Shown here in pieces: positions 381 through 49,426 of a stretch of 49,579 nt of DNA. The stretch is from Escherichia phage SRT8: the sequence record MF996376; one strand, written 5' to 3'. The notes under the pieces are model-generated. The model worked only from the letters and a program-made list of their open reading frames with translations, was not told where the DNA came from and did no database searches. Each line of letters starts with the position of its first letter. The stretch's first letter is position 1. The position numbers were made by a program, and so were the translations under genes.

Positions 381-383
381 AAT

Positions 384-28726: not shown

Positions 28727-28747
28727 GTTTAGCAATTCGTGCTAAAA
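28727..28747 (-). promoter_or_regulatory. Palindromic element cassette (TTTAGCA-ATTCG-TGCTAAA, a perfect 7-bp palindrome)
   Basis: Contains the stop codon of the upstream gene; followed by TATAGTAACCCCATCAAAACAAACGGAG leader. Confidence 0.55.
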
Positions 28748-29116
28748 GCGACCGGAACGACCGTTAACCGATACAACCTTTCCGCGCTTGCCGACGATCT
28801 CGTTATAAAGTGCGCCGCCAGCATTAACCGAATACTTCAGCGCCTCGGCTGGCGTGATATCGCGGAACATTTCAGCTTGACCGAATGACTTTTCCGCCGT
28901 TTCATTCTTGCGTCGCCACGCTTCGATCAGGTTCGGTAAAACACGTTCCGAACGCCACACGGCTAAAGCGGCCTGTTCGCTTGAATGCGGTAGCAATTGA
29001 CGCTCTACGATCTTGAACACTTCGCGGGCGATAGGAGTATCAAGTACGCCAGTTACCGAAAAACAGAAGTCGCAGAATTCGCGGGCTTGCTTCTCTGAAA
29101 GGTTAATCTGAATCAT
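28742..29116 (-). CDS. Hypothetical protein
   Basis: ORF in the early operon. Confidence 0.45.
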   Translation of the reverse strand: MIQINLSEKQAREFCDFCFSVTGVLDTPIAREVFKIVERQLLPHSSEQAALAVWRSERVLPNLIEAWRRKNETAEKSFGQAEMFRDITPAEALKYSVNAGGALYNEIVGKRGKVVSVNGRSGRF

Positions 29117-29304
29117 TCCGGTTTCTCCTTGGTAAAGAATCGACGCACATCTTTGCGATCATAATATGCGCCTTCGCTGTAATCTGATTCGCGTACTTCG
29201 ATAAACTGATCGCAACCGTCATACATGAAATCGCCGTCGTCGGTGAAAATCAATTCGTATTCGTTGCCGTGTTTGTCAAAGTAAACTTTTCCGGTGCAAA
29301 TCAT
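29113..29304 (-). CDS. Hypothetical small protein
   Basis: Start set to the ATG behind the conserved cassette leader. Confidence 0.4.
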   Translation of the reverse strand: MICTGKVYFDKHGNEYELIFTDDGDFMYDGCDQFIEVRESDYSEGAYYDRKDVRRFFTKEKPE

Positions 29305-29361
29305 TTTCGTTTCCTCGCTTTGTTTCAATAAGGACATTCTAACAAATGCCCTTGCGGAAAG

Positions 29362-29384
29362 TTTAGCAATTAGTGCTATTCGAC
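29362..29384 (-). promoter_or_regulatory. Palindromic element cassette, variant B (-10-like box inside a short inverted repeat)
   Basis: Motif followed by ctttccgcaagggcatttgttagaatgtccttattgaaa. Confidence 0.5.
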
Positions 29385-29582
29385 AATCTCCCAATCTTGC
29401 CCGGCAAGATGCACGCTATGTTTTAGCCGCGTGTAACATGGTGCGCCCAATTCGCCTTTGAAGCTGTAACAACCTTTAAACGAACCTTCTTCGCATAACT
29501 CCGCGTCGTAAATCTTAGTTGCCTTAATCCACGGCGAACCGTTATAAGTGGTGCGTATTCGGATCTTTTTCTTCTCTGTCAT
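29376..29582 (-). CDS. Hypothetical Cys-containing small protein
   Basis: ORF; GGGGAG RBS. Confidence 0.4.
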   Translation of the reverse strand: MTEKKKIRIRTTYNGSPWIKATKIYDAELCEEGSFKGCYSFKGELGAPCYTRLKHSVHLAGQDWEIVE

Positions 29583-29776
29583 AGTAATTTACTCCCCTTG
29601 CGGAATTCGTTTCGAAGCATATCGGCGGCGTCTAATCGACCATTTCGCCAGCCCAGCAAGTGACCGCCTAAGAACGCAAGAAACATCTCGGCGGCAACAA
29701 CGAAGCCGGAAGGCTGAAGCGCGATCGATAATGCGATGCAAGCCCAGCCGAAGATAAATAAAACCTTCATTTTCAT
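29579..29776 (-). CDS. Small membrane protein
   Basis: Two hydrophobic segments; cassette leader upstream. Confidence 0.45.
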   Translation of the reverse strand: MKMKVLFIFGWACIALSIALQPSGFVVAAEMFLAFLGGHLLGWRNGRLDAADMLRNEFRKGSKLL

Positions 29777-29834
29777 AGCGTAATTCCCTGATTGGTTGTT
29801 GATGGGGTAACTATAACAGCTTACCCCGATCCGG

Positions 29835-29853
29835 TTTTAGCAATTCGCGCTAT
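29835..29853 (-). promoter_or_regulatory. Palindromic element cassette (AAATAGCGCGAATTGCTAAAA, then hairpin, TGtTATAGT and leader)
   Basis: Read directly. Confidence 0.5.
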
Positions 29854-30428
29854 TTCAAATAGCGGCCTGTGATGACGCTTGCGGTGTAATCCGGGTCGCC
29901 GTCGCGCAACGTGAAGTCTTCTTCGGTGTACCCGTTAACGCCATGCCAGCCGACAGGTAAATGAAGATAGCTTCTGGAATCACCTTCGAACGTGAATCCG
30001 TCCCGGTGAAGTCGGCAAACATGAACCTGAATACCAGCTTCGATTAGTGCGATTGTCTCTTCAGTGAATCCGCCGTCAGTAATAACGGCTGGCGTGTCGC
30101 TTGCCTTAATCGCCTCCACCATGCGCCGCCCGAAATAATCATTTCCGAACTCAGGTTTAATGATTGTTTCGCTAATCCAGATCATGAACTCGCGCGGGCT
30201 TTTACCATTCAGGATAGAATCTGGCTTCTCTTTATGAAGTCGATCGTTATACAAGAATAAGAAATAATCGTAATTCGCGTCGCCCAAAATGGCGCGGGAA
30301 ATTTCAAACATCGGCGCTTTGAAGCTCAGCATGCGGACGCCTTTCCACTGGTTCATATCAGCGATAACACAACCGATCGTATCTTTGCCAATTCCCGGAC
30401 AGCCGTTAAGAATAATAACCTTGTTCAT
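29850..30428 (-). CDS. P-loop nucleotide kinase (deoxynucleoside-monophosphate kinase-like)
   Basis: N-terminal Walker A GCPGIGKDT and a late RDGD motif reminiscent of phage dNMP kinases; assignment from recalled family patterns. Confidence 0.5.
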   Translation of the reverse strand: MNKVIILNGCPGIGKDTIGCVIADMNQWKGVRMLSFKAPMFEISRAILGDANYDYFLFLYNDRLHKEKPDSILNGKSPREFMIWISETIIKPEFGNDYFGRRMVEAIKASDTPAVITDGGFTEETIALIEAGIQVHVCRLHRDGFTFEGDSRSYLHLPVGWHGVNGYTEEDFTLRDGDPDYTASVITGRYLK

Positions 30429-30535
30429 TATTTAACCCCTTTAATTACTTTCGCCACATCTACGATAACGCTATACATAATGTAAGCAAGAAAAAACGTT
30501 AATACCGGGTGCGCTTGCGAATGCGTAAAATTCTG

Positions 30536-31069
30536 TCATAACTTATCTACTCCGTGTGATTTCAGGTGTGAATGTACGTTGTCGCCGTAGTCGGTTACGG
30601 CATAGGTTGTTATTCCAATATTCCTAAAGTGTGGAATAACTGAAGGGCTATCATCCCACGCCGCTAAAATGCGATGCAACCCGATTTCGCGCAAAATCTC
30701 TTCTTTGATTACCGTATCCTTCCGGTTGTCGTCGTGGCGGCGCATGATCAGGAAATCATATTTCGCGTTGTGGTTCGCCAGCCATTCGCGCGACTCCTTT
30801 TCGACTTCATCGCTTCGCCCGGTTAGGATGATTACACAATGCCCGGCTGCATACATCGCATTCATTACCGCGATCGTGTTGGTAATCGGCGTGTCGAAGA
30901 TTGCCGCCCGGTTAAACTCGCTCCAACTTTCAGTTAAGTGAAGATCGGTTTTCGGTAGCAGGTGCAAGCGGTGCGTTCCGTCTGACAAAGTACCGTCGTA
31001 ATCAAAAATACAAATCATCCCGGACGGCGCGTTAGTGCGAAATTCTCTTCCGTATGCGTTAATCTTCAT
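30536..31069 (-). CDS. HAD-superfamily phosphatase
   Basis: DYDGT motif (FDYDGTLSD) near the N-terminus and a downstream acidic motif; start chosen at the ATG overlapping the upstream stop. Confidence 0.55.
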   Translation of the reverse strand: MKINAYGREFRTNAPSGMICIFDYDGTLSDGTHRLHLLPKTDLHLTESWSEFNRAAIFDTPITNTIAVMNAMYAAGHCVIILTGRSDEVEKESREWLANHNAKYDFLIMRRHDDNRKDTVIKEEILREIGLHRILAAWDDSPSVIPHFRNIGITTYAVTDYGDNVHSHLKSHGVDKL

Positions 31070-31191
31070 TATCGTAACCCTTCCCATTTTTCAGCCTGAT
31101 TTTTGCCGCGTTTCTGCGTCTTCTTAACTCGCTTGTAACCTTCGTCGAACTTCTTCGGCTTGCCGACAATCTTTTCGAAGTTTTGGCGCAT
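31069..31191 (-). CDS. Hypothetical small basic protein (about 40 aa)
   Basis: ATG behind the cassette leader CAAACAACAAAGGAG. Confidence 0.3.
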   Translation of the reverse strand: MRQNFEKIVGKPKKFDEGYKRVKKTQKRGKNQAEKWEGLR

Positions 31192-31243
31192 CGGTATTAC
31201 TCCTTTGTTGTTTGCTTTCAATGAGGACACTATAGCAATGCCC

Positions 31244-31266
31244 TCGCGGAAAGTCTTTAGCAAGTC
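31244..31266 (-). promoter_or_regulatory. Palindromic element cassette, variant B (TGcTATAGT in a hairpin loop)
   Basis: Read directly. Confidence 0.5.
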
Positions 31267-31273
31267 GTGCTAT

Positions 31274-31720
31274 TTACCAGTAGCTAATTTCTTCAATAAC
31301 GTAGCTGTCGAAGCTGGCTTGCGAAAAGTCGCTTTCGTAGTCGATGCGGAACGTTTCGATTAATTCGCTGATCGGGTAGCCAGATCTGAAGAAGTAGCCG
31401 TCTGCCATAGCCCGCGACCATTTCTTCGCGTCACGCTTGCACATACCGTAAGTGTTCACGGCCTCTTTGAAGAATGCGCGGTTCATCTTGCGGCGAATTG
31501 CGGTAACGTCCAGATAAGTAGCTGTACCGCCGTACACTTGATAATGATACCTGGACAGGCGCTTCATAATCAGATCCAGATCGCCCGGCTTGCAAATAAT
31601 CGCATCGGTGTGAAGGTAGGTTCGATACGGCTTGATTTCGGTTTCGTGACCGTAAAGACCGGTTTCCGCCATTTTGAGGCCGTCCGCTTCACCCTGAATG
31701 CACACGATCAGTTTGTTCAT
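31274..31720 (-). CDS. Hypothetical protein
   Basis: 148-aa ORF in the early operon. Confidence 0.45.
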   Translation of the reverse strand: MNKLIVCIQGEADGLKMAETGLYGHETEIKPYRTYLHTDAIICKPGDLDLIMKRLSRYHYQVYGGTATYLDVTAIRRKMNRAFFKEAVNTYGMCKRDAKKWSRAMADGYFFRSGYPISELIETFRIDYESDFSQASFDSYVIEEISYW

Positions 31721-31777
31721 TGTTGAATCTCCGTTTGTTGGTGTAGGGGGGAATCATAGCGCATTCCCCGTGATAGG

Positions 31778-31800
31778 TTTTAGCTTTTAGTGCTATTCAC
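31778..31800 (-). promoter_or_regulatory. Palindromic element cassette (motif overlaps the 3' end of the upstream ORF)
   Basis: AATAGCACTAAAAGCTAAAA followed by hairpin GGGGAAT...ATTCCCC and leader. Confidence 0.5.
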
Positions 31801-31998
31801 TTCGATAGTCACGCAAAAATTATCAAAACGATGCCCGCTTAAACGCGCTGTAATCACTTCTGGACGACGCAAAATCGCGTCAAGCAATCGCAAGGGTGAA
31901 TACTTAAAACCGTGATAGTGGGCGCTACGCTTCGAATTTGGGTTCATACCTGCTACCGCGTCCGCCGCTAAATCGTCGTAGTTCACATCACCAGCCAT
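31780..31998 (-). CDS. Hypothetical protein
   Basis: ORF in the early operon. Confidence 0.4.
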   Translation of the reverse strand: MAGDVNYDDLAADAVAGMNPNSKRSAHYHGFKYSPLRLLDAILRRPEVITARLSGHRFDNFCVTIEVNSTKS

Positions 31999-32105
31999 AA
32001 AGCCCCCTTCAAAACGTTAAGTACAATCAGCAATCCCAAAATCCCGGAAAGGAACCATAAAGGCGTATAGTCGGGCGGTTCATTCCAGTGTCCGGCGTCA
32101 ATCAT
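31986..32105 (-). CDS. Possible small membrane peptide (39 aa), below the ORF-track cutoff
   Basis: ATG with GAGG RBS; hydrophobic stretch LWFLSGILGLLIVLNVL. Confidence 0.3.
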
Positions 32106-32157
32106 CGTAAAACCTCAAGTTATGGGGAATCAATCAGCGACAGATTCCCCGTTAAAA

Positions 32158-32472
32158 TTACGCCACGCAAGCTACAGTGGCGACCAACAGGATCACGGCG
32201 GTGAAGATTGCCGGGACAATGTTTTCTTTGCGACGATACCACGGCTTTTTCGCTTCGTCGATTTCGCTTTGCGGTTTCAGCACTTGGAAGACAGCGCCCC
32301 GATCGGCGGCGAATGTTACGCGGTAGAACGTGCCGCCGTGAATCGGCATGCATGGACGCGCCCGGCCTTTGTCGTCGGCTGCGATGAAGTCTTTTTCGCC
32401 GACGCGCACAACGTCGTAAAATCCGCCGATGGTAAATTTATTGGTGTTGTTCGAAACGCATTTAGTTTTCAT
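32158..32472 (-). CDS. Hypothetical protein with C-terminal transmembrane anchor
   Basis: Start at the ATG behind the cassette leader; C-terminal IVPAIFTAVILLVATVACVA. Confidence 0.4.
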   Translation of the reverse strand: MKTKCVSNNTNKFTIGGFYDVVRVGEKDFIAADDKGRARPCMPIHGGTFYRVTFAADRGAVFQVLKPQSEIDEAKKPWYRRKENIVPAIFTAVILLVATVACVA

Positions 32473-32528
32473 TGATGTATCTCCTTTCGTTTGGTGTAGG
32501 GCTATTATGACATAGCCCCGATTCAGTG

Positions 32529-32550
32529 TTTTAGCAAAAAGTGCTATACG
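32529..32550 (-). promoter_or_regulatory. Palindromic element cassette
   Basis: ATAGCACTTTTTGCTAAAA then hairpin and AAAGGAG leader. Confidence 0.5.
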
Positions 32551-32846
32551 TAAACTTTGTTGCACAACGTGCCGGGCAGGATGTTAAACGACAGCATAAC
32601 GAAGTTGTTTCCGTTGTGCGTATCAGCGTTCGCCCGGTTAATGTACTTCGTTACGTCCGTCACATCGGTAATCAGTACACTAACTTCGCGCCCGGTGTAG
32701 TCGCCGTAATGCCACTCGCGCAAGCGCAACACGTCGCCCTCCTGAAAGTCGCGATCGTTCAATCTGAATTCGGCCTTCTTGCCGCCCATCTGGACGCCGA
32801 AAAAGTGAACAGGTTCGATCTTTAAATCGTGTTGCTTGCGTTTCAT
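32544..32846 (-). CDS. Hypothetical protein, possibly ASCH/PUA-like
   Basis: Weak pattern resemblance only (EFRLNDRDFQEGDVLRLREW). Confidence 0.4.
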   Translation of the reverse strand: MKRKQHDLKIEPVHFFGVQMGGKKAEFRLNDRDFQEGDVLRLREWHYGDYTGREVSVLITDVTDVTKYINRANADTHNGNNFVMLSFNILPGTLCNKVYV

Positions 32847-33055
32847 CGCCTACCAACCTCCCGGTAATCCATAGTCAAATCCAATTCCTTACAGCCGCAA
32901 GTGTGCATTTCTGTAGTGTTGACGTCGTGGTATTTGTTCATGCTGTACATTTCCTTCGCGATAATCTCGATCCTGTCGCTTGGGTGAATGTGCGATAACA
33001 GCCCTTCTAGCGTTACCGCCTTGCTGTCGATCTCAAATTGGCGTAGTCGTTTCAT
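32843..33055 (-). CDS. Hypothetical protein
   Basis: ORF, translationally coupled to neighbours. Confidence 0.4.
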   Translation of the reverse strand: MKRLRQFEIDSKAVTLEGLLSHIHPSDRIEIIAKEMYSMNKYHDVNTTEMHTCGCKELDLTMDYREVGRR

Positions 33056-33303
33056 TTAGCCACCCATTTACAACCGCTGTATTTTGCTTGACCGCCATCA
33101 TAGCCGCTATCCATTACGTGAAACTCGATCATGTCATTGGATAACATTTCCGTGATCGCGGAGTGATGCCAGCCAGTTTGATCAACATCCGGGAAATACC
33201 AGAACCTTTCCCCGGATGAATTCACATCCATTACTATGCTTTTGCACTTGCTCTTTTTCAGGCACGATTTAAATCGCTCCTGATCGCGTGTTAATTTTTT
33301 CAT
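33052..33303 (-). CDS. Hypothetical protein
   Basis: ORF, translationally coupled. Confidence 0.4.
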   Translation of the reverse strand: MKKLTRDQERFKSCLKKSKCKSIVMDVNSSGERFWYFPDVDQTGWHHSAITEMLSNDMIEFHVMDSGYDGGQAKYSGCKWVAK

Positions 33304-33593
33304 TTGAACAGTTTCCCCGATTTAAGCTTATTCCAGAACGAGAACGGATTAGCCTTCCGATACTCACCCTCTAAGAACGGATAGTCCGACATTTCGCGAC
33401 CTTCGAAAAGCAGATCGGCAAGGTGGCGATGTTTAGGCTTCGCGAATCGGGCTAACTCTTTCGCGCTTACCAGAACGAGCGAACCGATCGTTTTGTTGAC
33501 TTTTAGTTCAGTTTCGGTCGTCATGCCTTCGGTGATAATGTACTGATTGAGATTGCTCTTGCTGAAATATTGTTCGGTTAAGGTGATTTTCAT
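33300..33593 (-). CDS. Hypothetical protein
   Basis: Start at the ATG behind the cassette leader. Confidence 0.4.
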   Translation of the reverse strand: MKITLTEQYFSKSNLNQYIITEGMTTETELKVNKTIGSLVLVSAKELARFAKPKHRHLADLLFEGREMSDYPFLEGEYRKANPFSFWNKLKSGKLFK

Positions 33594-33659
33594 CGGGTTA
33601 TCTCCTGATTGGTTGCCCTGCTTCAATAAGCCCACTATAACAAATGGGCTTGCGGAAGG

Positions 33660-33677
33660 TTTAGCTATTCGTGCTAT
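33660..33677 (-). promoter_or_regulatory. Palindromic element cassette, variant B
   Basis: Element contains the TAG stop of the upstream gene; followed by GCCCA-tttgttatag-TGGGC. Confidence 0.5.
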
Positions 33678-34189
33678 TCAGCCCACTTGATCGTAGTGCC
33701 GCGCTTCATGCTAACTTCCCCGGCGAACACTTTGTTTTTGAAGCTGTGGTGCAACAGGAAAGTAATCGTTTCGCCGTCAACTTCGATTCGGACGGGATTA
33801 ACGAGAATATCAACCCATCCGCCCGACTCCATGCGGACGCCTGTCAGCTTCGCGCCTAGCGGCATTTGTTCGATTTTGCAGATCCCGCCAGATGTAGCGG
33901 CGGCGCTGGCATTATCGGCTGCGTTATGGATAATCATTCCGGCTGCGTACATTTGACCATTCAGCGAACGCGCATCCGAACGCATCGAATCTTTGTTGTA
34001 GTAGAAATAATCCTTCGCCGGGTTATTGTGCGGATTGCGTAGGTTATGCTGTTCGACGAAGTGCATAACGCTACCGTTATATTTTCCCTCACCTTCCTTC
34101 ACGCCACAATAGCGGCTAGTGAATGTGAAGCGGCCTACGCCGTTGCTGATAAATGTAATTGGATAGATGATATCTTGTTCTTTTAACAT
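33674..34189 (-). CDS. Hypothetical protein
   Basis: 171-aa ORF. Confidence 0.45.
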   Translation of the reverse strand: MLKEQDIIYPITFISNGVGRFTFTSRYCGVKEGEGKYNGSVMHFVEQHNLRNPHNNPAKDYFYYNKDSMRSDARSLNGQMYAAGMIIHNAADNASAAATSGGICKIEQMPLGAKLTGVRMESGGWVDILVNPVRIEVDGETITFLLHHSFKNKVFAGEVSMKRGTTIKWAE

Positions 34190-34241
34190 TGTTGTAACTC
34201 CTTTGTGTGGGCTTCACCACCATAGCGAAGCCCGAATCAAT

Positions 34242-34409
34242 TTACATGAACCAGCCCAACAGGGAACCCAGCGGCGCGATAAACACGCCGATTGCGCGAA
34301 TGATAAGGTTGTTGGTTGTGATATCGCCGAACATTGCGACGATGTTCATAATCCAGCCAGCAACAGCCGCGATCCATAAAGCAATAACCATAAGTGAGAA
34401 TAATTTCAT
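34242..34409 (-). CDS. Small membrane protein
   Basis: Start at the ATG behind the cassette leader; two hydrophobic segments. Confidence 0.4.
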   Translation of the reverse strand: MKLFSLMVIALWIAAVAGWIMNIVAMFGDITTNNLIIRAIGVFIAPLGSLLGWFM

Positions 34410-34465
34410 TTGTGTAACTCCTGTTTCGTTGTTGATGGGCTTACTATATCGCAAGCCCGGATGTG

Positions 34466-34488
34466 CGTTTTAACAAAAAGTGCTATCG
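34466..34488 (-). promoter_or_regulatory. Palindromic element cassette
   Basis: ATAGCACTTTTTGTTAAAA, hairpin, TATAGT, leader. Confidence 0.5.
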
Positions 34489-34965: not shown

Positions 34966-35018
34966 GTGTGTATCTCCGTTCGTTGTTGATGTGGTTATAG
35001 TACCCGATCCGCTTGACC

Positions 35019-35039
35019 GGGTTTTAGCAATTCGTGCTA
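35019..35039 (-). promoter_or_regulatory. Palindromic element cassette
   Basis: AAATAGCACGAATTGCTAAAA with the TAG stop of the upstream gene inside it. Confidence 0.55.
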
Positions 35040-35318
35040 TTTAATCCATTCGCCTTTAATAATAAAGTCAGTGAACGCGTCAACCTTAGCGCCGCCACCA
35101 CAATTAAGCGGGTAGCTCCCTGTCGCGTCGTAAAAGTCCGCCAGGCGTTCGGCTATCCAGTTCATGAAACGCGCGTTACGTGACGCTACAGTGCCTTCGT
35201 ATGCTTGCTTAAATCCAAGTGCGGTTACGAATGCGATAAAGCGTTTTTGATAACCGGGCATCGCTTGCACGTTGGCGGCGAAGGCGTGTTGAAATTCAGT
35301 GCGGGTAAAGTTGTTCAT
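35037..35318 (-). CDS. Hypothetical protein
   Basis: Start at the ATG behind the cassette leader. Confidence 0.4.
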   Translation of the reverse strand: MNNFTRTEFQHAFAANVQAMPGYQKRFIAFVTALGFKQAYEGTVASRNARFMNWIAERLADFYDATGSYPLNCGGGAKVDAFTDFIIKGEWIK

Positions 35319-35376
35319 CCTGATAGGTTCCGTTGTCGTTGTCGATGTGTGCATTATGCCCGACTCCGTGCCGGGC

Positions 35377-35396
35377 TTTTTAGCAATTCGTGCTAT
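35377..35396 (-). promoter_or_regulatory. Palindromic element cassette
   Basis: ATAGCACGAATTGCTAAAA plus hairpin GCCCGGCAC/GGAGTCGGGC. Confidence 0.55.
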
Positions 35397-36429: not shown

Positions 36430-36449
36430 GTAGCACGAATTGCTAAAAG
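36430..36449 (+). promoter_or_regulatory. Orphan palindromic element cassette (motif plus hairpin with TATAAC) not followed by a gene
   Basis: gTAGCACGAATTGCTAAAAg then GGGGA...TCCCC hairpin; no ATG with RBS downstream. Confidence 0.45.
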
Positions 36450-36623
36450 TTGGAGGGGAAGACCGTTTCACTCTATAACCTCTCCCCATTTTAATGCTTC
36501 ACAAGCAACAATCATCGCGATTGCGAACAATCACGCAATAATCATAACTTGTCATTTGCAATCATGAGTAATCACTCATTATTCCAGTTATTCCAATCTG
36601 AAGGAATAATCGTATCGGATCAG

Positions 36624-36642
36624 GAATAGCACTTTTTGCAAC
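36624..36642 (+). promoter_or_regulatory. Palindromic element cassette for the first rightward early gene
   Basis: AATAGCACTTTTTGCAACA, then TGgTATAGT, then leader ATCGAAACGAAGGAGA. Confidence 0.55.
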
Positions 36643-36698
36643 ACATCTGGCGGGTAGAGTTGGTATAGTTACTTCATCGAAACGAAGGAGATACAGAA

Positions 36699-37314: not shown

Positions 37315-37335
37315 ATAGCACTTTTTGTTAAAACA
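37313..37335 (+). promoter_or_regulatory. Palindromic element cassette
   Basis: AAATAGCACTTTTTGTTAAAA then hairpin GGGGT...ACCCC. Confidence 0.5.
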
Positions 37336-37393
37336 CAATAGGGGTGGTGTGGCATCATTACCCCATCGCAAACGAGACAAGAGGATCACAAGC

Positions 37394-38399: not shown

Positions 38400-38551
38400 T
38401 TCGATATTACAACCACGAAACGAAATCATGGTATGTAATCGTAGGTCAACATGTACGCCGCTTAATGAAAGATGGTAGTTGGATTATCTCAGATCGCTAT
38501 AGTGTCGCCGACGTTGCGCATTATCCATTTACCTGGCATCGCGTCAAATAG
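38396..38551 (+). CDS. Hypothetical small protein (51 aa)
   Basis: ATGA overlap; its TAG stop lies in the next palindromic element. Confidence 0.35.
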   Translation: MIRYYNHETKSWYVIVGQHVRRLMKDGSWIISDRYSVADVAHYPFTWHRVK

Positions 38552-38566
38552 CACAAATTGCTAAAA
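38546..38566 (+). promoter_or_regulatory. Palindromic element cassette
   Basis: AAATAGCACAAATTGCTAAAA, hairpin GGGGTA...TACCCC, TGtTATAGT, leader. Confidence 0.55.
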
Positions 38567-38620
38567 CAACGACGGGGTATCTTGTTATAGTTACCCCATC
38601 GAAACGAAGGAGAAATAACA

Positions 38621-38845: not shown

Positions 38846-38848
38846 TCG

Positions 38849-39058: not shown

Positions 39059-39080
39059 ATAGCACGATTTGTTAATATTG
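39059..39080 (+). promoter_or_regulatory. Palindromic element cassette, variant B
   Basis: AATAGCACGATTTGTTAATA, then TGaTAAAGT within an inverted repeat. Confidence 0.45.
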
Positions 39081-39140
39081 CCGCAAGGTCATTTGATAAA
39101 GTGGCCTTATTCAAGATAACCAATCAGAAGGAATTACCCG

Positions 39141-39554: not shown

Positions 39555-39556
39555 CA

Positions 39557-39578
39557 AATAGCACTTATTGCTAAAAGC
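39557..39578 (+). promoter_or_regulatory. Palindromic element cassette
   Basis: AAATAGCACTTATTGCTAAAAG, hairpin GGGGTA-taatc-TACCCC, leader AAGGAGA. Confidence 0.55.
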
Positions 39579-39629
39579 GTGTAGTATGGGCGGGGTATAA
39601 TCTACCCCGTTCAATAAGGAGATCTAGAA

Positions 39630-41195: not shown

Positions 41196-41201
41196 GGTGA
41201 A

Positions 41202-41606: not shown

Positions 41607-41724
41607 ATTCAACACGGCGCTAATGTCTCTTCTGTTGTCTTCGATGCGGGCGTCCGGTGAAACGTGTCACAATCTGGCGGACGGCGACGGCGTTTGCATA
41701 TTGAGCGTGACGCGATACCAATAG
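41551..41724 (+). CDS. Hypothetical small protein overlapping the previous gene
   Basis: ATG with AAAGG RBS; overlap of about 55 nt. Confidence 0.3.
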   Translation: MLIDRSVEFCATHQLSEDEFNTALMSLLLSSMRASGETCHNLADGDGVCILSVTRYQ

Positions 41725-41740
41725 CACTTTTTGTTAAAAC
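41720..41740 (+). promoter_or_regulatory. Palindromic element cassette
   Basis: ATAGCACTTTTTGTTAAAA then hairpin TACCC...GGGTA. Confidence 0.5.
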
Positions 41741-41794
41741 TACCCGGTTAATTCAGGGTATTATCATTTCATAGAAACAAAAGTAGAAAGAAAA

Positions 41795-42043
41795 ATGGCT
41801 ACTTACCGCGTTAACTTCAAATCAAATGCCCGCACCGACGAACGCAAAGTCGAAACTGTTACAATCCCGGATTGCGTACCGTTTGCAGCACGTAACCGCG
41901 CGATTTGCGCAACGTTAAACGTAATGGGATACGACTTCGCAGCCGATCCGATTATCGTTACTAAGGCGGTAACAATCCACGCCGTAGAATGCGGAATCCC
42001 TGATGAAGTGAAGGTCGCGGAAAGTATCGACATTCTCGCATAA
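41795..42043 (+). CDS. Hypothetical protein (last rightward early gene)
   Basis: ORF; followed by a bidirectional terminator. Confidence 0.45.
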   Translation: MATYRVNFKSNARTDERKVETVTIPDCVPFAARNRAICATLNVMGYDFAADPIIVTKAVTIHAVECGIPDEVKVAESIDILA

Positions 42044-42071
42044 AAAAGGAGGCTTTAAGCCTCCTTATTTT
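42042..42071. terminator. Bidirectional intrinsic terminator (AAAAAA-GGAGGCTT-TAAG-CCTCC-TTATTTT)
   Basis: Hairpin flanked by A- and T-runs between convergent genes. Confidence 0.7.
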
Positions 42072-42459
42072 GTTTCCTGTAACTGATTGACCACAACAGC
42101 CCCGCACAAATCAACCACGCCGCAATCATGCCGCCACCGAACCAGAATACAGCGCCTTCGCTACCGTTGTTTACTTCGATGCGTTCCGCCTGAATGGTTC
42201 CGGCCTTAATGCTTTCCGTCTTCTTAGTGGAGGAATCCACCTTGCCGACGTTGGAATCTTTGACCGACGTTTCGTTCTTCTGATCCTGTTTAGCTGTCAG
42301 GCCGACAGTCTGTTTTACGTTCTCCGCGCCGACTTGCGCCGTCACATCTGGCTTATTACCAATCAGGGAATCCAGCGGATTCATTGAACAGCCCGACAGC
42401 ACGATCGCGGGTAATGTAATGCACAATGCGCAAAATGTTGCTAATGCAAAATCTTTCAT
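42055..42459 (-). CDS. Unimolecular spanin (outer-membrane lipoprotein with C-terminal transmembrane domain)
   Basis: Lipobox LSGC after signal peptide, C-terminal [18 protein letters not shown] helix; last gene of lysis cassette. Confidence 0.65.
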
Positions 42460-42953
42460 TTCGTTAACTCCTTCATGCAGAATTTATATTCAATGTCGCG
42501 ACGGTTTTTAAGGCCGCGTGACTTTTCCATTTTTCCGGTTTTCGGATTGTAGAAGTAAACCCAATCATAAAGACGCGAACAAGCCTTCGTGAATCGCCCG
42601 GCGTTGACGTCTTTTAGTAAGGTTGATTTACGGAATGCCCCGCCTCCAACGTTGAACGTGAAGCTATACAGAGCCGCCCGCATGGTATCAGGAATCGGCA
42701 CTTTTACAGCGCTATCAACGTGCCGCTTCGCTACTTCGATGTGTTTGTAAAGTAGCGCGTCGCACTCTTTCTTCGTGTACGTCTTGCCTAAAATAACATC
42801 CTTCCCGGTAATGCCAGAACAGACCGTCCAGATCCCGGCGATATCCTTGTACGGCTTGTACCGGATGCCTTCGATTTCCTCAAGCAAGCCCGGCACAAGA
42901 ACAAGGGCGGCGGAAATTACTGTCGCCGCTACAGTGTTCTTGATTGCGCTCAT
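42456..42953 (-). CDS. Endolysin (T4-lysozyme-like muramidase), probably signal-anchor-release type
   Basis: Catalytic region [22 protein letters not shown] (Glu, 8 aa, Asp, 5 aa, Thr pattern) after a weakly hydrophobic N-terminal segment. Confidence 0.75.
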
Positions 42954-42955
42954 AG

Positions 42956-43171
42956 TTATTTATTCCGAATGTTGATTGCCGTTTTCAGATCTCCGGCGTC
43001 GATAGCCGCGCGGATAGCCTTGCTGTCGCGGTACTTCCAGTAAGCGCCCCAAACGCCGAAGCCTAAGAAACAAACGAAGGTTAGCCCGGCGATAACAAGC
43101 TGTCCTGTTGCCGCGCTAGTGATTGCAGCGCCGCCAGTGCCGGACGTTGCAGCGTGAATAAAGTCTTTCAT
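42956..43171 (-). CDS. Holin (small membrane protein, possible pinholin)
   Basis: 71 aa with hydrophobic helices, directly upstream of the endolysin; start taken at ATG 43171 (track start is GTG). Confidence 0.55.
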
Positions 43172-43293
43172 GAAATACCCCACAATAAAGTTTTAAGTTA
43201 GTGGGGATATAATAACGGAAGGTGGGCAGGAAAGGAACAGCACAAAAAGGAGGCATAAAGCCCCCTTTAGGATAGTGATTTGATTTGTATCAG

Positions 43294-43470
43294 TTATTTG
43301 ACAACAACGAATTCAAGATAATGTCCGCTTAACGGCGCTTGAATTGCCGATCCTTTGCCGTCGTAGATCTCATAAATCCCGCCGCCGTGGTGATAGCCGA
43401 TCGAATAGATTTCGTTAACGTGGAACGGTAAAGATTTAGAGTCGTTGCGAATACACTTAACGCGAGTCAT
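43294..43470 (-). CDS. Hypothetical small protein (58 aa), below the ORF-track cutoff
   Basis: ATG-initiated ORF between the peptide gene and holin. Confidence 0.3.
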   Translation of the reverse strand: MTRVKCIRNDSKSLPFHVNEIYSIGYHHGGGIYEIYDGKGSAIQAPLSGHYLEFVVVK

Positions 43471-43480
43471 GTTGTTTTCC

Positions 43481-43588
43481 TTAAAATCCGTTGAAGTTGC
43501 CAGCTAAAGACAGAACCCACAAGAAGAACCCGGTAACAGCTACGCCAGCAACGAAAGGTACTACGGTTTTGATGATGAAGTCTTTCAT
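43481..43588 (-). CDS. Small hydrophobic peptide (35 aa), possible membrane-active or lysis-timing peptide
   Basis: MKDFIIKTVVPFVAGVAVTGFFLWVLSLAGNFNGF behind a full cassette. Confidence 0.35.
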   Translation of the reverse strand: MKDFIIKTVVPFVAGVAVTGFFLWVLSLAGNFNGF

Positions 43589-43644
43589 TTGTCTATCTCC
43601 TTTGTTTTGATGGGGTAACTATAACTCGTTACCCCGCGTTTGTC

Positions 43645-43666
43645 TTTAGCTATTCGTGCTATTTAT
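43645..43666 (-). promoter_or_regulatory. Palindromic element cassette
   Basis: AAATAGCACGAATAGCTAAAG, hairpin GGGGTAAC/GTTACCCC, TATAGT, leader. Confidence 0.55.
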
Positions 43667-44796
43667 TCGGTCATTTCCGGGCGGTAGATGAAGCGCCCAA
43701 CTTCGCCGAATTTTTTGTCGTACACGATAACCGCCGCTTGTCGGTATGCTCTCCAGCCGCCCCGCGCCGCGTAAGCGTCTTTAGCGCCTAGCTGTCCGTG
43801 TACTTCGTCAATCCCTAGCGTGTGCTCGGTGATTGTTTGATGATGCCAATGTCCGCTATGCGTGTATACGTATTTGCTGTCGCCGAACTCTTCGCGGAAG
43901 TCCGCCGCCATAGCCGCTAAACGCGTGTCGGCTTTCTTCATCGTGTGACCGTGAGTGTAACCCAAAAGCGTTTTACCCCACTTCGTTTTATGTAGAATCA
44001 TCGGGCTAACATCGACATAGACGCGCGGTTCGTCGTCGTAATATGCCGCCATTGCAGCGCGTAGCCAAATCATTCCGGCTTGATCGTGATTGCCTTCAAT
44101 GATTTGCACTTCGACTTCTTCGTGTTTCTCAAGCATTCTTGAGATCGCGCGGCGCGTTGCCCGGATTGCCACGTAAACCAGTTTTGCATAGCGTGAATCT
44201 TGATCCAGAACGTGACCGCTTGCCGGGGTAACTGCGTCCAGACCGTCACTATGCAGGAAGTCACCACCGATTAACAGTACGGCTTTTTTGGCTTCAGGCG
44301 CTACGGTTACGGCGTAGTCGAAATACTTGTTCAACACTTCTTCGGCGATATCAGTAGAATAGTTTTCGCCGGATTCGTGTTTATGGGCTAACGCGCCGAT
44401 ATGAAGATCGAATACCGGGTAAAGCGCAAGCAAGCTTTCTTCAGTGTTCGGCGTTGCGTCGCTTGGCGTCGCTCGCGGAAGGTCTTCACAAAATGCGATT
44501 TGTGCCGCCTTCATTAGTTCGTAAATCTTTTCCTTGTCCTGATCGGTCTTAACCCAACGAACGACTTCGGAACCGTCCGCGCGAATCATTGTCGAAGTAC
44601 CTTTGACCGCGAAGCCTGTCGGGACGTTAGCCGATACGTGCGCGTTTCCGTGGAAGTGACCTTCTTTCGCTAACTTAGCGTGACGCGCTTCGACGGTTCG
44701 AATGTGCATACCGTATTTTTCTGCGATCTCGCGAAGGGTTAGGCCGTTGCTACGCTCTTCGATAAGCTGTTCGGTTGTGATTTTTGCAGTTGACAT
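43663..44796 (-). CDS. Calcineurin-like metallophosphoesterase with N-terminal helix-turn-helix domain
   Basis: Phosphoesterase motifs GDFLH, GNHD, GHTH, GHWH; N-terminal LTLREIAEKYGMHIRTV resembles an HTH. Confidence 0.6.
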   Translation of the reverse strand: MSTAKITTEQLIEERSNGLTLREIAEKYGMHIRTVEARHAKLAKEGHFHGNAHVSANVPTGFAVKGTSTMIRADGSEVVRWVKTDQDKEKIYELMKAAQIAFCEDLPRATPSDATPNTEESLLALYPVFDLHIGALAHKHESGENYSTDIAEEVLNKYFDYAVTVAPEAKKAVLLIGGDFLHSDGLDAVTPASGHVLDQDSRYAKLVYVAIRATRRAISRMLEKHEEVEVQIIEGNHDQAGMIWLRAAMAAYYDDEPRVYVDVSPMILHKTKWGKTLLGYTHGHTMKKADTRLAAMAADFREEFGDSKYVYTHSGHWHHQTITEHTLGIDEVHGQLGAKDAYAARGGWRAYRQAAVIVYDKKFGEVGRFIYRPEMTE

Positions 44797-44881
44797 ATTT
44801 TTACATCCTTACATTACAATTAGATAAATGATAGTGAAAGCTATTACGGGGGTGAATACTACACCAAAAAAGCCGAACATG

Positions 44882-45127
44882 CTACTTCTTCCTAAGCCAG
44901 TTTACAAGGTCTGAAGGCTTCATACCTTCGCCGCCATTGTCGAAAATCATCATGTTTTTAGCCGGGCTATACCACATCTTTATATAACCGCCGCCGCGAC
45001 TGCATAGAACCGTTTCGAAGTCGGAAGGCAACCAATCAGCGAAAGGGATTATTTTAAACACTTCGCCTTCGAACTCTGTTTCCGGGTAACTGTCAAAGTT
45101 ACCGTTTAAGCCGGGTAGCCTTTCCAT
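44882..45127 (-). CDS. Hypothetical protein
   Basis: ORF. Confidence 0.4.
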   Translation of the reverse strand: MERLPGLNGNFDSYPETEFEGEVFKIIPFADWLPSDFETVLCSRGGGYIKMWYSPAKNMMIFDNGGEGMKPSDLVNWLRKK

Positions 45128-45371
45128 TCTTCTGACTCTCCTTAAATTCCTTCATTATGCGCTTACCTTCTTCCCGGTAATATTCTAGACCGGGAACAGC
45201 CGGGACGCGGTGACATTTGCGTGGAAGCTCTTCAATGTAGGTTATCTTCCCGTTACCAATTATGCTAACGTCTTTTATATCTAAATACTTAGCAATTAGT
45301 GCGATCCCGTCCGCAAGCCCTGTTTCTTTTGCGTGTTCCCACACTGCCCGCTTGCCTGATTCTTTAATCAT
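45099..45371 (-). CDS. Hypothetical protein
   Basis: ORF, overlaps neighbours. Confidence 0.4.
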   Translation of the reverse strand: MIKESGKRAVWEHAKETGLADGIALIAKYLDIKDVSIIGNGKITYIEELPRKCHRVPAVPGLEYYREEGKRIMKEFKESQKNGKATRLKR

Positions 45372-45559
45372 GAATCACCTTCTTAACGTCTTCGATAAAG
45401 CTTTCGATCTCTTCGACGCTTGCGCGGTAATATGCCATTTTAAGAAACTTCATAGCGATATCCCAATCGAAGTTACCCGCGTGATATGTGGTTAACTCTA
45501 CGCCTTCACGCGCTGAAGATTGAGCCATTTCGAAAAAGTGTTTATTGATGCGAGTCATT
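45364..45559 (-). CDS. Hypothetical small protein
   Basis: Start at the ATG behind the cassette leader. Confidence 0.35.
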
Positions 45560-45614
45560 TGCTTATCTCCGTTTCGTTTTGATGAAATAATAATACCCGA
45601 CTTTCGCCGGGTAC

Positions 45615-45634
45615 GTTTAGCAATTAGTGCGATC
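45615..45634 (-). promoter_or_regulatory. Palindromic element cassette (variant GATCGCACTAATTGCTAAAC)
   Basis: Contains the stop of the upstream gene; hairpin and TATTAT box follow. Confidence 0.5.
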
Positions 45635-45851
45635 TGACGCCTAAGAATTCGCGCAAGTCGTTTTGTATGATTGAATCCCACAATTCGAACGGCTGATTCT
45701 TTATCTCTTCGAATGACATATCAAGGCAATCCGTAAAACTCCACAAGTCGCCGTCTACCATTTCTTCGACCATCGCGCTTTCAATCGCCGCGCACACCAT
45801 TGCACGATACAGGAGGAATAATTTATTCTCGCCGATAAGTAAAAGTTTCAT
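45624..45851 (-). CDS. Hypothetical protein
   Basis: ORF. Confidence 0.4.
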   Translation of the reverse strand: MKLLLIGENKLFLLYRAMVCAAIESAMVEEMVDGDLWSFTDCLDMSFEEIKNQPFELWDSIIQNDLREFLGVRSH

Positions 45852-46564
45852 TAAATATTCCTCGCTTTTGCACGTTTATTTTTCACTGAAGGGCAAATGT
45901 CCGCAATGCTCACATAATGCGTTTGTTGTGTCTCGCCTTCTTTAAGTTGGCGAATGACGAACAGAACAGAGCCTTTGTTATTTCCGTCTACTGGCTTCCC
46001 GGTAGCGCCCGAAATGAAGGCCAACCGTCCAGATCTGGCGAATTCCGTTCCGTCGATATCTTCCCACAAATCACCCTCGATCCAGATGATTTCCGCCGCG
46101 TTACGTCGCGCTTCTGTAAACCATGCCGTAGAGTTATCGGCAGGTAACAGCATATCAATCTGGTTTCCGTGTTCCATTTGCTCGATCGCTTTCTTAACGA
46201 ACACGTCCGGGCGACTATATGGCGGATTTAGCCAAACGTGTTTATTTTTACCCCACCAGCGTTTTAAGCAGTTTGTTTCCTGCGAATAAAACTTGTCGCA
46301 CACTTTATTTTCTTCGCTGGCGGCGGCGTCAAGATCATATTTACCGAAGCGGCCTTCCATATATGCCACGACTTCGCGCGGAGTAGACCATAAGTCGCGA
46401 ACCGCGTCCGGCGTATTGGTTCCCTTATATCGGCGACCGGATACGATATCTTCAGGGCGCGGCCTTACATATTGATAATGACCGCCAGTTACTAACCCGG
46501 CGCGGGCAAACTCGCAACCTGTGCCGAATGTGTCGATTGTCACTTTATCGTTTTCGTCTTTCAT
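45851..46564 (-). CDS. DNA N6-adenine methyltransferase (Dam-like)
   Basis: NPPY catalytic motif (WLNPPYSRP) in a 237-aa protein. Confidence 0.75.
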   Translation of the reverse strand: MKDENDKVTIDTFGTGCEFARAGLVTGGHYQYVRPRPEDIVSGRRYKGTNTPDAVRDLWSTPREVVAYMEGRFGKYDLDAAASEENKVCDKFYSQETNCLKRWWGKNKHVWLNPPYSRPDVFVKKAIEQMEHGNQIDMLLPADNSTAWFTEARRNAAEIIWIEGDLWEDIDGTEFARSGRLAFISGATGKPVDGNNKGSVLFVIRQLKEGETQQTHYVSIADICPSVKNKRAKARNI

Positions 46565-46567
46565 CGC

Positions 46568-46879
46568 TTATGCTCCGTAAATTTCGCACTGAAGGTTAGT
46601 AATTTCGTGGCTATTGGAAAGCATCTTCCCGGTGAATCTGTCGCGAATCAATGCCGTGTTTTTGAAGAACTGATAGCGCGACTTGTAATTCAGGACAGAA
46701 CGAAAATCTTGTCCGTGAACTTTACCGCCAATCGTTAACGCTTCGGTTACGGCGTTATATTCGATCTGCTCGGTGTATTCGTGACCGTCGAACGTGTAGT
46801 CGCAATCATAATTAATATTGAAATCCTTCGCGCTAACTGAAGCGGCGAATAACATTGCGAGAAGTGCTAATTTTTTCAT
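46568..46879 (-). CDS. Secreted / periplasmic small protein
   Basis: N-terminal signal peptide MKKLALLAMLFAASVSA; cassette leader upstream. Confidence 0.45.
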   Translation of the reverse strand: MKKLALLAMLFAASVSAKDFNINYDCDYTFDGHEYTEQIEYNAVTEALTIGGKVHGQDFRSVLNYKSRYQFFKNTALIRDRFTGKMLSNSHEITNLQCEIYGA

Positions 46880-46933
46880 TTCTTTGTCTCCGTTGTTTCG
46901 ATGAAGCTATTATGCCGAATTCCCTTTCGGCTG

Positions 46934-46955
46934 TTTTAGCTATTCGTGCTCTTTT
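46934..46955 (-). promoter_or_regulatory. Palindromic element cassette (motif forms the 3' end of the VRR-NUC coding sequence)
   Basis: AAAGAGCACGAATAGCTAAAA followed by hairpin and leader. Confidence 0.5.
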
Positions 46956-49413: not shown

Positions 49414-49426
49414 GAATTTTAATCCT

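Follow-up and report, generated by a model that had tools for sequence, protein, structure and literature searches.

A repeated intergenic unit of the T1-like Escherichia phage SRT8 as a probable -35-less promoter and occasional recombination substrate

Between the early genes of Escherichia phage SRT8 (record MF996376; the window is the whole 49,579-bp stretch, a complete T1-like genome) stand about twenty copies of a unit of ~75 bases, which consists of a 21-base motif (the 21-mer), a promoter-like -10 hexamer coupled with a hairpin, and a leader for ribosome binding. We propose, at a probability of roughly 0.6 and on the evidence of sequence comparison, that this unit is a dispersed early or middle promoter that lacks a -35 element and is preceded by a protein-binding site, and that its repeated copies secondarily serve as recombination substrates. 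Under this proposal, the 21-mer, with its inverted repeat TAGCA-N5-TGCTA about 42 bp ahead of the predicted transcription start, would be the protein-binding site; a sigma-70 -10 element, often of the extended form TGnTATAAT and placed 22 bp past TTGCTA with no usable -35, would be served by the host RNA polymerase; a variable hairpin that encloses the -10 or ends at it would attenuate or end read-through, or would stabilise the 3' end of the upstream message; and the conserved leader and start codon would give translation of the downstream gene.

SRT8 is assigned to the Drexlerviridae, Tunavirinae and the genus Sertoctavirus, which also holds the two phages drawn from GenBank as close relatives for comparison: Citrobacter phage IME-JL8, the nearest (96% identity across 98% of 28000-47500), and Escherichia phage BrunoManser, the next (95% identity across 93% of the same interval). 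In IMG/VR, the window is identical to contig UViG_2974594196_000001, and a search there with a 197-aa early protein returned the SRT8 genome itself as its sole match. Three arms make up the region that carries the units, each composed of small early and replication genes: two on the minus strand (35986 to ~27441 and 49413 to 42055) and one, at 36699-42043, on the plus strand. Between the arms that start at 35986 and 36699 lies a non-coding, AT-rich centre of 710 bp, from which these two diverge.

Architecture of the unit

The gene-strand form of the motif is aaATAGCACnnnTTGCTAAAA. When its palindromic core TAGCACNNNNTGCTA was searched with up to 2 mismatches, 60 matches were found over both strands compared to 8.1 +/- 4.0 in shuffled sequence, and none of 100 shuffles attained that number. 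About 27 good copies of the motif are present in the whole genome, 20 of them within 28727-46955 (hereafter the range), and for 19 of these 20 a start codon follows 71-83 nt past the motif. The same arrangement holds family-wide, where units sit at gene junctions and point in the direction of the downstream gene, with the ATG 70-86 nt on (mode 75-76 nt).

For the family-wide comparison, between 549 and 920 distinct instances from IMG/VR Drexlerviridae contigs were aligned by the 21-mer motif alone, which gave the logo ATAGCACtaaTTGCTAAAAC-N15-tGgTATAaT..cCcCAtcgaAAc. The best -10-like hexamer lies at a spacer of 22 from TTGCTA in 745 of 920 instances (81%) and at 21 or 23 in another 88; TAnnnT is found at spacer 22 in 65% of instances and at any other offset in at most 7%. 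TGn precedes TAnnnT in 241/598 family instances and in 11/19 units in the range. The most informative positions of the logo are the G of the TG pair and, within the hexamer, the opening T, the A and the closing T, a conservation pattern by which sigma-70 extended -10 elements are recognised. Setting the hexamer at -12 to -7 centres the TAGCA-N5-TGCTA inverted repeat at about -42 and puts TTGCTA at -40 to -35, which leaves just AAAACn where a -35 box would normally stand. The transcription start is predicted at the A of CCCCATCG, ~7 nt past the -10.

A scan of the region for canonical -35/-10 promoters returned 20 sites, compared to 28.1 in shuffles, and flagged just one unit (43646). The 2024 paper on TLS, whose 21-nt repeat is compared with ours below, similarly reports only three sigma-70-like promoters (PMC11447400). 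Several established elements were considered for the 21-mer and set aside. TTGCTA does not serve as a -35, with 22 bp between it and the -10 and no conserved hexamer 17 bp downstream of it. An UP element was rejected, as it would be an A/T tract at -59 to -38, which the 21-mer is not, and the UP consensus is not matched either. The motif, TAGCAC-N3-TTGC, lacks the GG doublet of the sigma-54 consensus TGGCAC-N5-TTGCW and has a spacer shorter by 2 bp. Sigma-32 (CCCCAT), Fis, IHF and the DnaA box each misfit in spacing or key bases when judged by eye against consensus sequences.

The 3' part of the unit consists of a hairpin and a conserved leader, CATCgAAAC..AGGAG, which includes the Shine-Dalgarno sequence and is followed by the start codon. 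Over 627 units, the segment from motif to leader folds with a mean minimum free energy (MFE) of -10.8 kcal/mol on the sense strand, compared to -8.7 on the antisense strand and -5.0 after shuffling. Relative to own-strand shuffles, the sense strand scores z = -2.84 and the antisense strand z = -1.49 (p = 8e-25), and G-U pairs make up 13% of hairpin pairs. These comparisons were used instead of fixed-column covariation because the stem register shifts by at least 2 nt among copies. Stems vary among copies and orthologues with their pairing maintained. T1 carries such units too, including the type that we call variant B, whose stem changes are compensatory (GGCCA/TGGCC in T1 vs GCCCA/TGGGC in SRT8). 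Judged from these sequences, the hairpin is under selection.

Two classes of hairpin can be told apart. In class I (fifteen units, variant B included), the loop contains the -10, and a GC-rich stretch just ahead of the predicted start is formed by the 3' arm. In class II (35039, 35395, 41722, 45632, 46951 and a unit specific to IME-JL8), the hairpin ends at the -10, whose T-rich box forms a terminator-like tail. The distance from the -10 to the 21-mer is constant in both classes alike, which indicates that the box is read in DNA and that the hairpin is a separate, movable feature. Since the hairpin lies upstream of the predicted start, it would be present only in transcripts arriving from upstream. 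A T-rich tail is found only on class II units and on the unit at 362, and a terminator scan flags 45614-45593. The unit at 361-436, at the junction of the regulator and primase genes, has a 14-bp hairpin of -20.8 kcal/mol with a T5 tail and with TAGAAT in its loop, and seems to combine a complete intrinsic terminator with a promoter in one element.

An earlier note on the range, made from the sequence alone, had claimed that at many early-gene junctions the stop codon of the upstream gene is part of the element, and the ORF (open reading frame) ends at the range copies bear this out. All range copies that are preceded by an annotated gene have that gene's stop within the motif or at most 7 nt ahead of the core. 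The motif TAG (ATAGCAC) is the upstream stop at nine sites (28744, 29378, 29852, 32546, 33676, 34485, 35039, 35395 and 38549) and at a tenth, 41722, where the ORF is not annotated in the relatives. A TAA 4 nt ahead of the core (TAAATAGCAC) is used at 31272, 37316, 39060 and 43661, and one 7 nt ahead at 39559. At 31795 the stop is the TAA of GCTAAAA, and at 45632 it is a central-triplet TAA, the one that the note had placed at 45624. A TAG at offset +9 is used once, by the gene at 46940-47365, which ends ...AAA GAG CAC GAA TAG within the motif. The note had read the last codons of a VRR-NUC gene as forming the motif at 46955; they do, and Pfam confirms the gene's identity (E 6.7e-9).

Family-wide, among 796 distinct units preceded by a long ORF, the element contains the stop in 84% and the motif TAG is used in 48%, compared to 11% for the TAA at +13. 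Since genes are tightly packed in this genome, the upstream ones extend into the element and terminate at its TAG or TAA. The consensus provides these two stops only (TAG, and TAA at +13) and not stops in all three frames, as had been supposed. The notion that each small gene is bounded by a unit did not hold either, as a unit immediately precedes only ~19 of the ~48 genes in the range, and the resulting cassettes comprise 1-5 genes. Variant B, on the other hand, is present at the four sites claimed for it (29379-29305, 31273-31192, 33677-33594 and 39059-39140), where the copies have in common the block TTCCGCAAG..CATTTGTTATAGT..CTTATTGAA. The element is also rare inside coding regions, as the note's account of it entailed, with only one degenerate copy (45304) wholly within a gene. 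This copy, GGATCGCACTAATTGCTAAGT at 45290-45304 in gene 45099-45371, agrees with the motif of the neighbouring unit at 45632 across the core TCGCACTAATTGCTAA and may be a local duplication or conversion.

The units, partial units and orphan motif are as follows.

28672..28745 (-): class I; 21-mer at 28745-28725; TATAGT in the hairpin loop, 22 bp past TTGCTA; leader; ATG at 28671; TAG ends gene 28742-29116
29305..29379 (-): variant B with TTCCGCAAGGGCATTTGTTAGAATGTCCTTATTGAA; motif TAG ends gene 29376-29582
29777..29853 (-): class I, GGGGTAA..TGTTATAGT..TTACCCC; motif TAG ends the 192-aa gene 29850-30428
31192..31273 (-): variant B; gene 31274-31720 stops with TAA 4 nt ahead of the core
31721..31796 (-): class I; gene 31780-31998 ends at the TAA of GCTAAAA (offset +13)
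32473..32547 (-): class I; motif TAG ends gene 32544-32846; edge of the event E2 replacement relative to BrunoManser
33594..33677 (-): variant B; TAG ends gene 33674-34189; event E4 insertion site in BrunoManser and IME-JL8
34190..34241 (-): partial unit with hairpin, TATGGT box and leader, no 21-mer; second crossover partner in event E5
34410..34486 (-): class I; TAG ends gene 34483-34965; leader AGGAGTTACA is one crossover partner in event E5
34966..35040 (-): class II; hairpin CCCGGTC..GATCGGG ends at the -10 TACTAT; TAG ends gene 35037-35318
35319..35396 (-): class II; TAG ends gene 35393-35986; site of the extra 304-bp cassette of IME-JL8 (event E6)
36430..36450 (+): orphan 21-mer amid the central non-coding stretch; lacks a -10 at 22 bp, and the 190 nt around it are free of genes
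36626..36698 (+): unit with TGGTATAGT, ahead of the first plus-arm gene 36699-36989
37315..37393 (+): class I; gene 37126-37314 stops with TAA 4 nt ahead of the core; event E7 edge adjoins the motif
38548..38620 (+): class I, GGGGTA..TGTTATAGT..TACCCC; TAG at 38549-38551 ends gene 38396-38551
39059..39140 (+): variant B, ahead of the conserved gene 39141-39554
39558..39629 (+): class I with perfect TATAAT in the loop, ahead of the DUF3987 gene 39630-41195
41721..41794 (+): class II, hairpin then TATTATCATTT, ahead of gene 41795-42043
43589..43662 (-): class I; the 377-aa gene 43663-44796 stops with TAA 4 nt ahead of the core
45559..45633 (-): class II, motif variant TCGCACTAATTGCTA; gene 45624-45851 ends at the central-triplet TAA; hairpin and TATTATTATTT are terminator-like
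46880..46952 (-): class II, motif variant AGAGCACGAATAGCTAAAA; end codons of VRR-NUC gene 46940-47365 form the motif; leader edge bounds event E9
49414..49493 (-): unit beyond the range, upstream of helicase gene 47362-49413 and divergent from the regulator gene
361..436 (+): unit beyond the range, upstream of the primase gene; hairpin with T5 tail, its loop holding TAGAAT; motif TAA is the stop of the regulator gene
4447..4525 (-): unit beyond the range; class I, box TATAAT; a 217-aa gene follows

Two stretches, 32106-32157 and 34190-34241, have a hairpin and leader without a 21-mer, with a -10-like box also at 34190-34241; they may be decayed units or an independent type.

We hypothesized that the 21-mer would be bound by the phage's Cro-fold regulator, acting in the geometry of a class II activator. 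Activation of this kind is inferred because the 22-bp link is rigid, the -35 is missing, and the dyad lies at ~-42. The regulator gene spans the ends of the window (5' part at ~49508-49579, 3' part at 1-377, plus strand) and encodes 149 aa, which match PHROG 2856 'transcriptional regulator' (E 2e-71) and are 55-82% identical among T1-like genera; in Pfam, P22_Cro and YdaS are matched only weakly and short of the threshold. A single-sequence structure model (predicted local distance difference test score, pLDDT, 54) was unusable, and AlphaFold was therefore run with a 28-sequence alignment. The resulting model has an all-alpha core of Cro fold with pLDDT above 90 over about residues 45-130. Its best PDB matches are Xfaso-1 Cro and N15 Cro on its operator (target TM-score ~0.70, root-mean-square deviation 2.4 A over 63 residues), with a Foldseek E-value for the Cro match of just 0.013. 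A conserved dimeric helix-turn-helix (HTH) protein and a conserved dyad would make a reasonable pairing, and we consider the regulator the most likely binder of the 21-mer, which could equally serve repression.

At 49440-49510, the helicase unit and the divergent regulator gene have ~95 bp in common, and the palindromic TGTATAATACA offers a -10 on both strands. As a 21-mer lies between this box and the regulator start codon, the arrangement would allow the regulator to control its own gene.

Gene gain, loss and replacement at the units

The earlier note had also likened the units to promoter-early-stem-loop (PeSL) cassettes that shuffle genes and had suggested comparing gene gain and loss among related phages with the positions of the units. 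Chained alignments of SRT8 with IME-JL8 and BrunoManser revealed nine gene-scale differences in the early arms, of which two run from unit to unit, four have one unit edge and three have none. Unit edges thus account for 8 of the 18 event edges, where ~40% of junctions carry a unit.

E1: 117 bp at 30429-30545, absent from BrunoManser; no unit relation
E2: replacement of gene 32544-32846 in BrunoManser, with one edge falling exactly on the 21-mer
E3: IME-JL8 lacks gene 33052-33303; no unit relation
E4: 26-aa ORF in IME-JL8 and BrunoManser, between the variant-B leader and the ATG at 33594
E5: gene 34242-34409 with the next hairpin and leader lost in BrunoManser; junction inside the repeated leader AGGAGTTACA
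E6: extra 304 bp in IME-JL8 with its own hairpin, -10, leader and a 76-aa ORF that ends in the next motif's TAG; exactly between two identical GAATAGCACGAATTGCTAAA copies
E7: gene 37126-37314 absent from IME-JL8; edge adjoins the motif
E8: 220-bp BrunoManser-only gene at 38395-38401; no unit relation
E9: gene 46568-46879 replaced in BrunoManser; one edge beside the leader

In two of the three unit-free events, the junctions have overlaps of 8 and 7 bp. As judged from its junction, the gene loss in BrunoManser (E5) is a crossover between two leader copies, those of 34410..34486 and 34190..34241. The gene gained in E6 has homologues in T1, F20, FritzSarasin and 175-kb Klebsiella and Enterobacter phages, and none in SRT8 or BrunoManser. 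At IME-JL8 37010-37240, this 76-aa cassette gene is matched by 48% identical homologues in the 175-kb Klebsiella/Enterobacter phages R4_1 and phiEap-3, and by this sequence evidence it exemplifies gene flow between unrelated phage families.

To extend the comparison to the Drexlerviridae, ~20 kb around the conserved 377-aa gene was taken from 66 IMG/VR contigs, which gave three other clades of 12, 36 and 9 loci (57 in all) and 732 locus pairs. After de-replication, ~38 distinct indels remained, of which 8 run from unit to unit with 21-80 bp of junction homology and ~17 have one unit edge; among replaced segments, 22 of 118 distinct ones have both edges in units. In a null model built on pairs of junctions separated by 60-1500 bp, both members carry a unit in 7.5% of pairs, and the observed unit-to-unit shares are 21% for indels (p = 0.007) and 19% for replacements (p = 7e-5). 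Unit junctions account for 61 of the 243 de-replicated breakpoints, other junctions for 87 and intragenic positions for 95; with 24.5% of distinct junctions bearing a unit, the odds ratio for a breakpoint is 2.2 (p = 7e-5). Within units, replacement breakpoints cluster at offsets -5 to +5, at the upstream stop, and at 55-85, at the leader and start; in such replacements, as far as the alignments tell, the ORF is swapped and the units stay. Variant-B units, of which there are 53 distinct sequences, stand upstream of at least 18 unrelated protein families.

These breakpoints are consistent with the repeats acting as recombination substrates, and the mechanism we envisage is a simple one. Dispersed direct repeats of 13-85 bp would act as occasional substrates for homologous recombination, which the phage's annotated exonuclease VIII, recombinase and single-stranded DNA-binding protein (SSB) genes could supply, a link that we infer; recombination together with selection for intact ORFs would then yield PeSL-like gain, loss and replacement of ORFs between units. 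Since the crossover points are not fixed, general homologous recombination is indicated and not a site-specific system. Free shuffling of gene order was rejected, as the genes common to T1 and SRT8 are collinear with variable slots between them; because these genes keep their order, turnover would occur in place, slot by slot. Units as markers of accessory genes were rejected as well, since core genes (the helicase, the DUF3987 protein, 39141 and 38621) are preceded by a unit as readily as unique genes, and unique genes are also flanked by unit-free junctions.

Part of the PeSL-like cassette idea therefore stands. Its layout, the clear unit-to-unit cases and a 2-3-fold enrichment speak for it, while ~80% of events take place otherwise and core genes have units too; gain and loss breakpoints coincide with units sometimes, and above expectation, but not usually. 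We treat recombination at the units as a secondary consequence of their being repeats, and as neither their main function nor the main route of turnover.

The strongest competitor to this account grants the units no mechanistic role in turnover. They would simply be operon-start promoters, and breakpoints would gather at them since non-overlapping junctions tolerate insertions and selection keeps whole ORFs. The placement of in-unit breakpoints at ORF edges (offsets -5..+5 and 55-85) is what this explanation would predict, and it is at ease with the majority of events not being unit-to-unit, with 3 of the 9 Sertoctavirus events falling at unit-free junctions, and with units not being specific to unique genes. 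It does not, however, account for the homology at the junctions: unit-to-unit indels are flanked by 21-80 bp, compared to 0-19 bp in other indels, the IME-JL8 cassette lies between two identical 20-nt copies of the motif, and the BrunoManser deletion junction falls within a shared leader. We regard it as a real but minority possibility, and prefer the promoter whose repeats occasionally recombine.

The promoter proposal and other readings of the motif

Several observations weigh against the proposal of a -35-less promoter with secondary recombination. The motif is only partly palindromic, with C6 and T10 breaking its symmetry, and it always has one orientation, which a symmetric dimer does not need. 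Directly ahead of late genes (27449, 10886 and 16862) there are 21-mers without a -10, for which a pure promoter model does not account. A terminator role for the class I hairpins is doubtful: they do not qualify as intrinsic terminators, most being without a U-tract, with CAUCAAAAC or CATCAAAAC following the hairpin. The literature searched yielded no transcription start, termination or binding data for T1-like phages, the one Drexlerviridae match being T5-like RNA-seq. As for recombination, ~80% of indels and replacements are not unit-to-unit, and the enrichment of the others is measured against a null whose gene calls are a simple ORF tiling, with events in related genomes only approximately independent.

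The copies near late genes are of several kinds. At 27449(-), a 21-mer lies 33 nt ahead of the small terminase ATG, and at 10886(-) another lies 21 nt ahead of the 1141-aa tail-tip gene, neither with a -10 at 22 bp. At 16848(+)/16862(-), a perfect palindromic 21-mer is found 41 nt ahead of the tape-measure chaperone gene and just past the terminator of the major tail gene, and at 1447-1461 an inverted 21-mer is found just ahead of the Shine-Dalgarno sequence of the lateral tail fibre gene; on the late-gene strand, both are without a -10 at 22 bp. Read on the plus strand, the palindromic copy (16847-16930) has TGA-TACGAT at 22 bp, antisense into the late operon, with the bidirectional terminator AAAAAGGGGAAGCAAGCTTCCCC within ~50 nt, and could give a very short antisense RNA.

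Such copies would suit a repressor or roadblock site, at which a phage protein, in the manner of a stoperator, halts early transcription or late read-through and the -10 promoter is repressed. The 21-mers without a -10 directly upstream of late genes (27449, 10886, 16862 and 1447) are readily understood in this way, as is the Cro-type fold of the candidate binder, Cro proteins being repressors; a site centred at -42, however, leaves the -10 and start uncovered, and the promoters have no -35 and seemingly depend on something upstream. The copies are numerous, asymmetric, intergenic and in one orientation relative to transcription, a likeness to L5 stoperators that the TLS paper also notes (PMC11447400), but a roadblock needs no fixed distance to a -10, and 81% of the 920 instances keep 22 bp. 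For these reasons, we consider a roadblock improbable.

A slightly poorer prospect is a unit that acts in RNA, as nut-like antitermination, an RNase processing site or a translational operator, with the 21-mer as a small hairpin or linear box and TGnTATAAT as a loop motif. The conservation of TG and of T, A and final T is that of a sigma-70 extended -10, and class II hairpins exclude the TATAAT box with its DNA distance to the 21-mer unchanged, neither of which is expected of an RNA signal; the stem of the 21-mer itself is just 5 bp. On the other hand, the sense-strand bias of the hairpin with its G-U pairs, the variable stems around a conserved loop (as in boxB elements), and the 21-mers just upstream of late-gene ribosome-binding sites and past the terminator after the major tail gene would all be at home in RNA. 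Very unlikely, finally, is an active site-specific cassette system (an integron or mobile element) with a dedicated recombinase that recognises the 21-mer or hairpin: although variant-B units stand ahead of at least 18 unrelated gene families and the TAG frame is over-used as upstream stop (48% vs 11% for the +13 TAA), crossovers fall in the 21-mer (E6), in the leader (E5) and elsewhere along 19-80 bp of shared sequence, no integrase or transposase was found among the proteins scanned, and T1 and Sertoctavirus keep their common genes in order.

Known systems, implications and neighbouring features

Class II activator promoters, such as those served by lambda cI at OR2/PRM or by CRP or FNR at -41.5, offer a parallel to the promoter proposed here. 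Both have a dyad ~42 bp upstream, a weak or absent -35 and rigid spacing, and the candidate binder is an HTH protein of Cro/cI type; the SRT8 site differs in being asymmetric outside its 5-bp half-sites, and its start is a predicted one. In the middle promoters of T4, a MotA box that contains TGCT lies at -30, 11-13 bp from the -10, and replaces the -35. The SRT8 unit likewise combines an upstream phage box containing TGCT with a sigma-70 -10, but its box ends 22 bp from the -10, and no homologue of MotA or AsiA was found among the few early proteins scanned. Mycobacteriophage L5 is temperate, and its stoperators silence the prophage by blocking elongation, with no fixed relation to a -10. The SRT8 motif shares with them the many short, asymmetric, intergenic sites of one orientation, a resemblance drawn by the TLS authors (PMC11447400). 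T1-like phages differ in being virulent, and the fixed 22-bp link to the -10 is kept by 81% of motif instances.

The 2024 TLS paper describes a 21-nt direct repeat aaATAGCACnnnTTGnTAAAA with 18 intergenic copies ~76 nt upstream of starts, reports it also in T1, Rtp and Rogue1, lists its function among four open questions on T1-like phages, and suggests a stoperator, an enhancer or a UP-like element (PMC11447400). The SRT8 motif is the same element, since it matches the consensus aaATAGCACnnnTTGnTAAAA and is intergenic, co-oriented and at a similar distance from starts; we find this type of repeat in T1 and in ~900 distinct IMG/VR Drexlerviridae instances. The retrieved passages contain no link to a -10 at 22 bp, no sense-biased hairpin, no leader, no stop overlap and no connection with indel breakpoints (PMC11447400), and the literature searched did not tie the repeat to a promoter or to recombination in a T1-like phage. 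The 21-mer has thus been published before, and its composite architecture and the PeSL-like behaviour in T1-like phages are apparently new.

PeSLs are laid out as an upstream stop, a promoter, a stem-loop of GGGG..CCCC type, a Shine-Dalgarno sequence and an ATG (PMC2839356, Arbiol 2010; PMC4122927, Comeau 2014). The SRT8 unit has its parts in the same order, with the stem-loop between the boxes or overlapping the -10; both elements are scattered in regions of small early genes, and some indel and replacement junctions between close relatives lie in units. The two have no sequence homology, and PeSLs have a full sigma-70 -35/-10 with AT-rich upstream sequence, whereas SRT8 units have a 21-bp GC-containing element at -50 to -30 and no -35. 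Promoter and terminator activity and minicircles were shown experimentally for PeSLs, whereas SRT8 units are known from sequence alone; they also precede core genes as well as ORFans and account for just ~20% of events. Compared on this footing, the SRT8 unit is PeSL-like in layout and partly in evolution, yet it is not a PeSL.

A more ambitious interpretation, which we offer tentatively and think less likely than the promoter proposal itself, is that the ~75-bp module is a family-wide portable cassette boundary, composed of a stop, a -35-less promoter activated by the Cro-fold regulator at -42, an insulating hairpin and a leader, at which Red-like recombination plugs ORFs in and out. If true, the module would be the counterpart in virulent siphoviruses of the PeSLs, built on a dedicated activator site and not on a consensus host promoter. 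With the promoter proposal itself, the open question on the 21-base repeat of TLS becomes a precise model with a -35-less extended -10, a dyad at ~-42, a named candidate binder and a predicted start. Promoter/stem-loop units as occasional recombination joints would not be peculiar to T4-type myoviruses but would have a sequence-unrelated counterpart in small virulent siphoviruses, which bears on how phages turn over their host-takeover genes. For the engineering of T1-like phages, of which the BASEL phage BrunoManser is one, the units would also offer natural insertion points together with signals for expression.

The non-coding centre of the region (35987-36698) holds 5 of the window's 7 copies of TTAGACA inside 412 bp, at 36017, 36071, 36372(-), 36398 and 36422, and also has several further direct and inverted repeats. 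On the opposite strand TTAGACA becomes TTGTCTAA; at 36078-36050, one of the copies supplies the -35 hexamer of TTGTCT-17-TATTAT, which resembles a canonical promoter. The 710-bp centre may be an immediate-early control region or an origin. At 42046-42066, where the plus-strand early arm meets the lysis genes, there is a bidirectional terminator (AAGGAGGCTTTAAGCCTCCTT, with T-runs on both sides). Elsewhere in the window, the longest stretch without homology to BrunoManser, and likewise to IME-JL8, is the lateral tail fibre gene (1829-3289 and 2135-2880), whose divergence is probably a host-range swap unconnected with the units.

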